A DNA stretch of 64,000 nucleotides from the NCBI GenBank assembly GCA_964016885.1, contig OZ024764.1, positions 1,612,001 through 1,676,000 on the forward strand, written 5' to 3'. Made by a program: the position numbers and the translations under genes. The DNA is from Eledone cirrhosa. Lineage: Eukaryota. Of the stretch, positions 4,763-27,081 are shown piece after piece. Position 1 is the first letter of the stretch. Each line of letters starts with the position of its first letter. The notes below the pieces were generated by a model. It was given only the letters and a program-made list of their open reading frames with translations, had not been told where the DNA came from and did not search any database.

Positions 4763-4826
4763 GTAAGTTGACGAAAAAATATACATAACATAACATAACA
4801 TAACATCTATTTTATTTCTCACTCTT

Positions 4827-4862
4827 TCTTCTGATGAAGGACCAGCATCCGAAACGTCAAGA
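4827..4862 (+). ncRNA. Minimal type I hammerhead ribozyme (family B) within a ~150-220 bp dispersed repeat
   Basis: tctt-CTGATGA-a-gga/tcc stem II-GAAA-c-GTC-aaga; helix I tctt/aaga; palindromic ACGT stem III typical of Penelope-type minimal HHRs. Confidence 0.75.
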
Positions 4863-4952
4863 CCCTCTTCCTGCTATATCAAGCGTTAAACTAATATATT
4901 CCTTCCATATACTGTACAGATTGTGTTGTTATTTATGTTTACCTTTTACATA

Positions 4953-13650: not shown

Positions 13651-13836
13651 ACTAAGCAAGGGAACTCTACTATGTTATTTGTATAGACTGATTTTGTATC
13701 GGTACAAAAGCCATACCAGTAATTACTCCTGTATTTGTGTGTGTTACTGAATATATGTTTAAAAATATAACTACTCCATTACCAAAGGTTTCTGGATCAC
13801 AGACAATATTAATATACGTCTGGATGGGTCGTATCT

Positions 13837-13900
13837 CTGTCTGATGAATGATCCAGACGTATATTCTTATCGTCTGTGATCCAGAAACCTTTGGTAATGG
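13837..13900 (+). ncRNA. Type I hammerhead-like motif with inverted partial copy upstream (13763-13825)
   Basis: CTGATGA 13841, stem II cagacg/cgtctg, GAAA-cc-ttt-gg-TA; helix I weak (ctgt/atgg). Confidence 0.55.
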
Positions 13901-14016
13901 AGTAGTTATATTTCGTGTTGTTCACTTTCTAATTATATATACATATATATATATGTATATATATGTATATGTATATATATGTGTATATATATATATATGT
14001 GTGTATGTGTGTGTAA

Positions 14017-14639: not shown

Positions 14640-14835
14640 AATGAAGTATTTCCATCGGAAAGGTCCAGGAAAAAAGAGTGCTCTATGTAGGTTACAGAGC
14701 TTATTAGTTATGTAATAAACAACATAAGATAATTATTTCATTTACCAGTGGTTTCTTGAAGGCAGATTTTGTCTGTCTTCAAGAAACCACTGGTAAATGA
14801 AATAATTATCTTATGTTGTTTATTACATAACTATA
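14640..14835. repeat. Fold-back cassette in (TA)n (arms about 14706-14765 / 14775-14833)
   Basis: Near-perfect inverted repeat; same family as 45398-45700. Confidence 0.85.
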
Positions 14836-24396: not shown

Positions 24397-24528
24397 TTAT
24401 TATTATTGTTGTTGTTACTAATGTTAATATTGTTGTTGTTATTGTTATTATTAATATTTTAATTCAGATTTCGTTGTTGTTTACCCCATGTCTTGACAGC
24501 TGGGTTTATATATATATATATATATATA

Positions 24529-24885
24529 TCATCATCATTTCATCATTTCATTTTACGTCCCCGCCTTTCCCCTGCTTGCAAGGGTGGGACGGGAACTGAT
24601 TCTGGCTTGATTTCTACAGCTGGATGCCCTTCCTAACACCAACCTCATTTACAGTGAGTGCTGGGTGCTTTTTTGCCGTGGCACCTCCACGACCACTTTG
24701 CAGTGGAATGATAGGGACCCCAGTCCCTATCATCTCATTTCTACAGCTGAGTAAACTGGAGCAATGTGACACAAAGTGTCTTGCTCAAGGAAACAACACA
24801 TCACCCGGTCTGAGAATTGAACTCACAACCTTTCGATTGCAAGGCCAATGCTCTAACCACTAAGCCATGTGCCTCCATATACATG

Positions 24886-24921
<36 letters not shown>

Positions 24922-25195
24922 AAAGACCGGGTGATGTGTTGTTTCCTTGAGCAAGGCACTTTATTTCACATTGCTCCAGTTTACTCAGCTGTAGAAATGA
25001 GATGATAGGGACTAGGGTCCCTATTATTCCACTGCAAAGTGGTCGCGGAAGTGCCAGGGCAAAAACCACCCAACACTCACTGTAAATGAGGTTGGTGTTA
25101 GGAAGGGCATCCAGCTGTAGAAATCAAGCCAGAATCAGTTCCCGTCCCACCCTTGCAAGCAGGGAAAAGTGGACGTAAAATGATGATGATGATGA
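24529..25195. mobile_element. Inverted pair of CORE-type family A SINEs (24529-24875 minus; 24924-25195 plus, head-truncated) around (TA)n
   Basis: Both match 52725-53060. Confidence 0.9.
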
Positions 25196-25443
25196 TATAT
25201 ATATTAGAAAGTGAGGTTTTTTTTTTTGCAAAATGAAAAATAACCGAGGTGTCCTACACGAGTGAAAGTATAAAGAAAAAAGATGAAATCGAAAATGCAA
25301 CTGGAGTCTTATTTTTAAAAAAAATATATATTTATTTGGTTCTTTTACTGGTTTTGCAGTTCTTCTGCTTTTCAAATGTAGAGTTGAGATAGAGGGTCTG
25401 TGGTTTTTCTCACGCCTCTCATATATATATATATATGTATATA

Positions 25444-25504
<61 letters not shown>

Positions 25505-25694
25505 AGATCAAAAGATGGTTAAATGAGTTCCATGTATTTTATTATGCGCATTTCAAAAACAAATATCATCATGCAATAACATTTGTGTTTTCATCAGATA
25601 AAATAGGAAGACATGATATGAAGGTTAAAAACACTTGTGGATAGTGCAGTTTTAAATCAACATATTAACAATTAACCTTCATATCATGTCTTCC

Positions 25695-25765
25695 TATTTT
25701 ATCTGATGAAAACACAAATGTTATTGCATGATGATATTTGTTTTTGAAATGCGCATAATAAAATA
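25695..25765 (+). ncRNA. Type I hammerhead ribozyme; antisense copy at 25535-25605
   Basis: tattttat-CTGATGA-long stem II-GAAA-tgcgca-TA-ataaaata; 8-bp helix I, palindromic stem III; inside a fold-back with arms about 25496-25628 / 25672-25805. Confidence 0.85.
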
Positions 25766-26384
25766 CATGGAACTCATTTAACCATCTTTTGATCTTATAT
25801 ATTATGTATACTCCAGTCCTACAAACTGTAGAGTGCTTCTTATCCGATATCTGCATTGCTTTATTGTACTACAATAAAACTCACCTCCTACATATATATA
25901 TATATATATATATGTGTATCTAATGTTTGTTGAGTGAGTTGGAATTTAGCTGGAGTATCGCTATTAGGTTTCTCCGATTATGTATTTATATATTTACTCT
26001 TGGAGCAACAGATAGGAACTTTCCCGTTATAAGGTATGACTCTCTTTGTTTATTTTTTATATGAATATTGATTGTTTGTTCTTGTATCTCATTCTGTTAT
26101 TTTGCCCGAGAAAATATCTATATGTGTCATCAAGCGATGCGCCCATATGGTTATTTTTTCATATCCAATTGAGTTCTTAGCACGTGGCTTGAATTCTTAT
26201 CAGAGTTCAACTACCTGCGCATGTATTGTTTTTGGTGGTAGTCTCGTTCCTCCTATTTTCGGGACAGTGTGAGAATTTCTTTAGAACTGCTGGACTAACA
26301 ACCTAGCAGCTCCCTCAAGCACTGATGGTGATTATCGCTAAATATTGATGTTGATTTGGTTATCAATATTAATATTATTGGGCA

Positions 26385-26507: not shown

Positions 26508-26606
26508 AAGAGATATATTCGATATATCTCATATGAAATGATACAGCCAATTATCCACACAATACAATTAGTTAGCACCCCGAACGTTTAATTAGGAATA
26601 TATATA

Positions 26607-27081
<475 letters not shown>

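Follow-up and report, generated by a model that had tools for sequence, protein, structure and literature searches.

How two almost identical arms, set head to head and each with a hammerhead, came to lie inside a TA microsatellite is the question raised by an insert of ~400 nt in Eledone cirrhosa DNA (hereinafter the cassette). The cassette was analysed in its setting of 64,000 nucleotides (the window), a stretch of AT-rich repeat DNA with an apparently cephalopod-like repeat landscape. For Penelope-like elements (PLEs), an inverted copy accompanied by a tail on one side only, and a bias for (TA)n, have been published (PMC8557442, PMC3846280, PMC8969392); similarly, hammerheads on opposite strands, 100-700 bp apart and belonging to truncated PLEs, have been noted in Schistosoma (PMC4209133). 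The origin of the inverted repeats and tails of PLEs has been called undefined (PMC8557442), and one published proposal attributes the inverted repeats to antisense self-priming (PMC3846280). The layout itself is already known; the new part is the detail of ends and junctions in the family of the cassette, together with a stem shared between families.

The arms of the cassette (25490-25628 and 25672-25810) are 139 nt long, differ at a single position (25806) and are separated by 43 nt (Table 1). In inverted orientation the arms match exactly over up to 134 nt, whereas 100 shuffles gave at most 18 nt. The near-identical arms reported in a first-pass annotation (25496-25628 and 25672-25805) fall within these confirmed arms. 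The left arm lies directly against (TA)n, its outer end being a TA-like stretch that merges into the microsatellite, while the right arm runs on for 81 nt, close to the ~85 nt first claimed, before (TA)n resumes at its end. The cassette contains no ORF of at least 100 aa. The tail was considered as the start of an ORF because one frame is open here by eye, and this was dropped because the frame is closed in a neighbouring family (51279). A poly(A)-signal-like hexamer precedes the tail end in just two of six tails examined. No second copy of the family is found elsewhere in the 64-kb window.

Table 1. Features of the cassette and its microsatellite target (positions in the window)
Feature	Positions	Strand	Remarks
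(TA)n target, left part	25421..25497	.	
Tail-less copy, 176 nt	25490..25665	-	Read 25665->25490; 37 nt native 5' sequence + 139-nt arm
Type I hammerhead, left copy	25535..25605	-	Identical to right-copy hammerhead
Native 5' segment	25629..25665	-	Contains 25659-25666, inner end common to other family copies
6-nt filler at head-to-head junction	25666..25671	.	Private to this copy
Tail-bearing copy, 220 nt	25672..25891	+	5'-truncated by 37 nt relative to left copy
Type I hammerhead, palindromic stem III (dimer type)	25695..25765	+	By motif and fold analysis
TA-like stretch, fixed short-arm end	25796..25810	+	By dinucleotide steps and loose ends in public reads
4-bp RCTC/GAGY stem, start of tail	25810..25834	+	Also in 4 other fold-back families and 1 unfolded element
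One-sided 81-nt tail	25811..25891	+	AATAAA at 25873-25878, 13 nt short of end
(TA)n target, right part	25892..25913	.	

Public reads contain further copies of the family. All or part of 25629-25891 is present in 18 of 24 listed runs (13 studies), none of them an RNA run, and at least half of its words in seven. Four runs were mapped, namely X1 (3956 contigs), which may share its source with the window itself, X4 (33 contigs), X24 (5097 raw reads) and X19 (Hi-C, ~1/100 of the run; 0 reads). Likeness was set at 85. The joints listed number 15 out of 52, and the filler rows 12 out of 18. The joints mostly lie on one short contig each, with a shorter side of less than 30 nt in 12 of 13; RAD reads give undue weight to a small number of loci, and the p-values given for joints assume unbiased listing.

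The commonest joint connects 25629 to 25672 on opposite strands (19 contigs of X1, one of X4 and 404 reads of X24 with 38 starts). It was rejected as a shared fold-back because the unit natively runs in this order. Specifically, the spacer 25629-25665 lies natively upstream of the left arm, the one without a tail. The true junction of this copy is therefore 25665/25672 with a 6-nt filler between, and the 43-nt centre is ruled out as a neutral loop. The bin depth at the filler is that expected for no coverage in X4 (observed 21.7, expected 21.7) and in X24 (263 versus 259).

The outer end of the short arm is constant among copies. Loose ends behind 25810 continue as (TA)n in 57 contigs of X1, two contigs of X4 and 268 reads of X24. 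The check proposed in the first-pass annotation, whether short-arm end points are fixed, thus has a positive answer in two organisms: the arm ends at the TA-like stretch and (TA)n follows. The reading of the short arm as an inverted pseudo-LTR (pLTR) copy of PLE type without the 3' tail is likewise supported; the tail in family reads is one-sided and fixed. Scored by dinucleotide steps, the stretch 25796-25810, a putative internal priming site, is more TA-like than any other 15-mer in 25672-25891 (11 of 14); scored by ungapped match to (TA)n, it is unremarkable (best 9 of 15, with four ties).

The two inner ends behave differently. All 13 listed non-native joints depart from 25659-25665 (p ~5e-6 if uniform, 18 positions; 15 of 52 joints listed), and 12 of the 13 have microhomology of 1-6 nt. 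The landing points on the sense arm are variable, from 25672 to 25862, as judged from 22 starts (13 joints, eight filler rows and this copy), for which three X1 rows at 25798 were merged with a table row and two landing points were shifted by hand for element variants. Nine starts lie upstream (duplication), six at 25790-25810 (p ~0.02) and seven in the tail (deletion). Antisense-arm inner ends thus span 8 nt, and sense-arm ends 190 nt, in the listed joints. We infer that 25659-25666 is the transcript 5' end of the family. Copies extending beyond 25665 are present in X24 (310 reads), X4 (one contig) and X1 (16 contigs), indicating that this 5' end is not universal. A C at the start of a filler is expected from a copied cap (PMC11702581), and 7 of 11 X1 fillers start with C (p 0.0007-0.008); this was not counted as a cap signature, two of the C-initial fillers being explained by element sequence and three resembling the native continuation with one change.

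The right-arm hammerhead consists of the core (CUGAUGA, 25703-25709; GAAA, 25746-25749), an 8-bp stem I (25695-25702/25758-25765), a domain II that forms a 12-bp hairpin (25710-25745) and a self-complementary 8-nt stem III (25749-25756), with the cut site after 25757. The minus strand carries the mirror image of this hammerhead (25597->25543). The core and stems I-III are found on both strands, in agreement with the earlier claim of a complete, outward-pointing hammerhead in each arm. As in minimal type I hammerheads, the core is of the form CUGANGA/GAAA/UH and the palindromic helix III is predicted to be unstable as a monomer: the 8-nt duplex has a predicted energy of -10.5 kcal/mol, and closure within a monomer would cost 2.0 kcal/mol. 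The G10.1-C11.1 pair is A25710-U25745 in this copy; family variants A>G and T>C are listed at these positions, unphased with respect to each other.

Family variation modestly supports the hammerhead assignment. None of the 40 listed variants (of 55) hits the invariant core, and pairing in stem II would be kept by all eight variants listed there (p ~0.02 versus random transitions; 40 of 55 listed). A stem III variant at 25751, seen in X24 alone, breaks the palindrome. Rfam returned no hammerhead, neither in one search with seven weak snoRNA/sRNA matches nor in a second among the 150 of 274 matches listed, all to microRNA models, and the ribozyme call therefore rests on motif and fold analysis. 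Seven listed family variants within the hammerhead (25696-25736) are A>G on the sense strand; these are conceivably fixed A-to-I edits of an RNA intermediate, their polarity being ambiguous.

The first-pass annotation proposed that a transcript from either strand would carry a ribozyme. Such a transcript does contain one hammerhead sequence; its activity is less to be expected. The predicted fold of the cassette transcript has an energy of ~-230 kcal/mol and leaves the hammerhead core unpaired with a probability of at most 0.001, and there is no second copy on the same strand with which to dimerise. Buried in a predicted 139-bp hairpin, both ribozymes are probably inert in this cassette; in a read-through transcript, the ribozyme is predicted to be masked by the rest of the same RNA. 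Because both arms cross the cleavage site, the RNA template must have been uncut.

There are six further fold-backs in the window (13763-13913, 14705-14833, 43998-44116, 45398-45635, 45800-45937 and 51279-51617). The claim that the layout recurs is sustained for the ends and only in part for the ribozymes: a tail on one side (~63-146 nt) is present in five of the six, whose short arms end in TA-rich sequence, whereas the hammerhead core is in both arms only at 45398 and 45800, with one intact and one mutated core at 51279. Tails of the neighbouring families measure ~63-87 nt, with one of ~146 nt. The fold-backs at 14705 and 45398 are members of a single family: they share the short end and the tail, and differ in fold point. 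The 14705 copy folds exactly at the stem II loop of the hammerhead of this family, which could have arisen by joining at a natural hairpin or by a subsequent deletion. In the hammerheads at 45800-45937, stem III has a genuine loop (16-nt segment) and domain II measures 12 nt; hammerheads of this type may be able to fold as monomers. Folding is nearly loop-free at 14705, 43998 and 45800, in two cases at natural palindromes.

These elements share a stem at the start of the tail. It has the form RCTC-N11..20-GAGY, with 4 bp and, in one case, a loop of 52 nt, and begins 2-7 nt past the departure point of the short arm in six of seven fold-backs from five families; it is absent from the 13763 fold-back. 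In one family GCTC/GAGC replaces ACTC/GAGT, an A-U to G-C swap. The window holds 11 strict matches, six of them within these elements, and 9.4 kb hold seven compared with a shuffle mean of 1.45 (maximum 5), for a motif that has only 4 bp and was defined after being seen. The pairs were read by script; MAFFT did not line up the stem. The same stem is present in an unfolded element of ~420 nt between two (TA)n runs (45975-46395, minus strand), which has a type I hammerhead with a 12-bp stem I. Upstream of its ribozyme is a short, splice-donor-like GGGTATGTCA motif in common with the 51279 family.

Other repeats of the window include an RTE-like LINE (27617-30580, plus strand; a 987-aa frame with RVT_1 (RT), endonuclease and PHD matches, a disrupted start and (TA)n flanks). 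Long 80-bp tandem arrays in opposite orientation (33860-35386 and 35946-38273) are built from an RTE 3' coding segment. A SINE-like repeat of ~290 nt is present in three copies of alternating orientation around the cassette (24520-24811, 24924-25205 and 26597-26890). Another dispersed family (4805-4937, 32896-33078, 46918-47121, 51630-51830 and 52312-52516) has a minimal hammerhead with a 4-nt palindromic stem III, the core being intact in three of the five copies, and a single hammerhead core at 43002-43098 (plus strand) has a ATATATAT stem III, a weak stem I and a (TA)n run ~60 nt on.

A broken, 5'-truncated PLE-like ORF at 53261-53930 (plus strand) contains an RT-thumb-like stretch, a CxxC-type linker and GIY-YIG. 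It adjoins a TA-rich run and is followed by a 51-bp tandem array; we label the remnant Neptune-like by its linker motif only. The GIY-YIG part (53542-53769) matches PF01541 with E 0.0012 and 19.5 bits, under the cut-off of 22.6, and has no DNA similarity to the cassette. A hammerhead-like core at 53274 was rejected as a link to this remnant because it has no stem I. No reverse transcriptase or endonuclease gene linked to the cassette family was found.

From the pattern of ends and junctions in family copies, priming from both strands of a cut (TA)n site, as first suggested, is kept as the likeliest origin. Specifically, the cassette is probably a short, protein-free, Penelope-like pLTR piece, whose RNA of ~260 nt was reverse-transcribed from both ends of the cut. 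An internal promoter would start the RNA near 25665 on the minus strand and transcription would proceed through hammerhead and tail. A PLE GIY-YIG/RT protein acting in trans would bind the tail, for which the RCTC/GAGY stem is the probable site, and would cut both (TA)n strands. The tail-less arm would result from one target end, annealed to the TA-like stretch beside the base of the stem and extended as far as the RNA 5' end; the tailed arm would result from the other, primed at the RNA 3' end and extended to a variable stop. The cDNA ends would then be joined via microhomology or filler, with the ribozymes as passengers of the insertion. In this copy the second cDNA would have reached almost the RNA 5' end, hence a whole hammerhead in both arms.

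In favour of such twin priming are a short end that is fixed and continues as (TA)n in two organisms, the clustered inner ends, the microhomology and the position of the short-arm end 2-7 nt before the RCTC/GAGY stem. The split of sense starts into duplications, internal-site starts and deletions is the pattern of twin priming, and the 5' sequence on the tail-less arm is not predicted by simple snap-back of a tail-primed cDNA. On the other side, the outer ends of other family copies are absent from the records that hold their joints, and the loop-free fold-backs at 14705, 43998 and 45800 are equally explained by snap-back or later deletion. With the joints and fillers partly listed (15 of 52; 12 of 18), copies with a truncated tail-less arm may exist unseen. 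Duplications of up to 139 nt, compared with 1-10 bp for L1, would require strand displacement or a second RNA.

Parts of this scheme have precedents in the available portions of published work. Penelope has an internal promoter (PMC2377424). In vitro, the PLE protein of Poseidon-Ac cuts and extends both strands at AT-rich DNA, from two starts that bracket the tail, and insertion is independent of hammerhead cleavage (PMC11167929). On the twin-priming reading, the cassette is similar in its two tail-bracketing starts, the stem-loop at the start, the AT-rich target, the extension of both strands and the dispensability of ribozyme cleavage; it differs in that its internal site is (TA)n-like, whereas the Poseidon-Ac start is not homologous to the cut DNA. 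That account, in its available part, gives no explanation of inverted copies. L1 twin priming likewise involves internal RNA priming via microhomology, with deletion or duplication junctions near the internal site (PMC11702581), whereas the cassette family has a fixed internal site, duplications to 139 nt (L1, 1-10 bp) and no poly(A).

A bolder version of twin priming, which we put forward tentatively, is that these are SINE-like, self-transcribed Penelope parasites of ~260 nt with programmed twin priming, in which the RCTC/GAGY stem, conserved in families that otherwise cannot be aligned, would position the RT so that, of the two cut (TA)n ends, one primes on an in-built mimic of TA and the other on the RNA 3' end.

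Alternatively, a dimeric enzyme working on two RNAs could have made both arms as 5'-truncated cDNAs of a long autonomous transcript, 25665 being a pause or joining hotspot. The longer copies past 25665 in two organisms are consistent with this, as is the PLE protein, a predicted dimer that extends both strands (PMC11167929), and long duplications would be possible without strand displacement. Such truncation should, however, scatter both inner ends, while the antisense ends of the listed joints keep within 8 nt and the sense ends range over 190 nt. We regard this explanation as possible and, on balance, unlikely.

Antisense self-priming (Arkhipova 2013) was put forward to account for PLE palindromes of head-to-head form (PMC3846280). 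In that model an antisense template, RNA or cDNA, with its end at ~25665 would fold at microhomology and prime the sense arm, and the hairpin would integrate. This would leave one inner end fixed and the other variable, with microhomology, and the loop-free palindromic centres of three other fold-backs fit snap-back. We nevertheless consider it improbable for the cassette: it requires an antisense RNA with a defined 3' end, leaves unexplained the short end on the TA-like stretch at the foot of the shared stem, and departs from the in vitro insertion, in which sense RNA was used (PMC11167929).

That the hairpin is mobile as a unit, whether as a MITE, a fold-back DNA transposon or a tandem retrozyme, is very improbable. 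The long inverted arms and the TA target would fit, and type I hammerheads mark retrozymes, which are pLTR-derived (preprint 10.64898/2026.07.22.740005). The junction of this copy is, however, unshared, and junctions vary among copies. In place of the symmetric termini and shared internal structure of a MITE, there are an 81-nt unpaired tail at one end and copy-specific junctions. Head-to-tail tandem units with a hammerhead each, as in retrozymes, are found neither at the locus, which has no tandem array, nor among the 15 of 52 joints listed, none of which is head-to-tail; the sequence beyond 25665 (30 letters visible) differs from the tail end. An assembly or library chimera is hardly credible: no listed read or contig spans the cassette or crosses 25666-25671, but a single-copy junction would be invisible under the summed family depth, the same junction class is present in independent short-read contigs and raw reads, and seven fold-backs are alike in anatomy with ends tied to a sequence motif.

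Twin priming being the preferred reading, the cassette can be placed among known elements as far as the available parts of the sources describe them. Like EN+ PLEs, it has head-to-head pLTR copies, a one-sided tail, a shorter inverted copy and no TSD discernible in the microsatellite (PMC3846280, PMC8557442); unlike them, it has a tail of 81 nt in place of 30-40 bp and contains no ORF. The minimal type I hammerheads of metazoan PLEs also have an intact core, a long helix II and a palindromic helix III for dimers (PMC4209133, PMC6765202), and differ from that of the cassette in G10.1-C11.1, which is A-U here, and in helix I, which is at least 8 bp here. The Hydra and Neptune clades share the canonical hammerhead and the targeting of (TA)n or microsatellites, Hydra being present in molluscs (PMC8557442), whereas the cassette family is without a linked protein. 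Non-LTR retrozymes are also non-autonomous and pLTR-derived with a type I hammerhead, but form head-to-tail tandems (preprint 10.64898/2026.07.22.740005), whereas the cassette is a dispersed head-to-head unit. The cassette resembles a PLE end in its working, yet, without an ORF and with the GIY-YIG remnant unrelated in DNA, it is not an autonomous PLE.

Searches of the literature found no twin-priming account for PLEs, no clustered 5' end implying a short self-transcribed PLE unit and no description of the tail stem; the figures of PMC11167929 and the supplements of the retrozyme preprint, outside this search, could bear on the novelty of the stem. Eight short motifs from these elements are absent from the supplement text of PMC8557442, and the supplements of PMC11167929 gave no text matches. 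Viral contig collections, scanned twice, gave 0 matches. A match in a metagenome collection was set aside as a chance match of 24 nt; three prokaryote matches, likewise attributed to chance, have no hammerhead fold and lie in ORF-bearing, AT-rich DNA.

A short and very abundant family, in which the internal end is fixed, the 5' end clustered and a stem shared with other families, amounts to a natural junction library and a minimal RNA, and thus offers a means to tell twin priming, priming on two RNAs and snap-back apart. The fixed end points of the cassette family suggest how PLE hairpins form, and such hairpins, if common, are a ready source of long dsRNA. Programmed twin priming, if true, would account for the pLTR that is inverted and without a tail in PLEs, and would seed a genome with thousands of hairpins.
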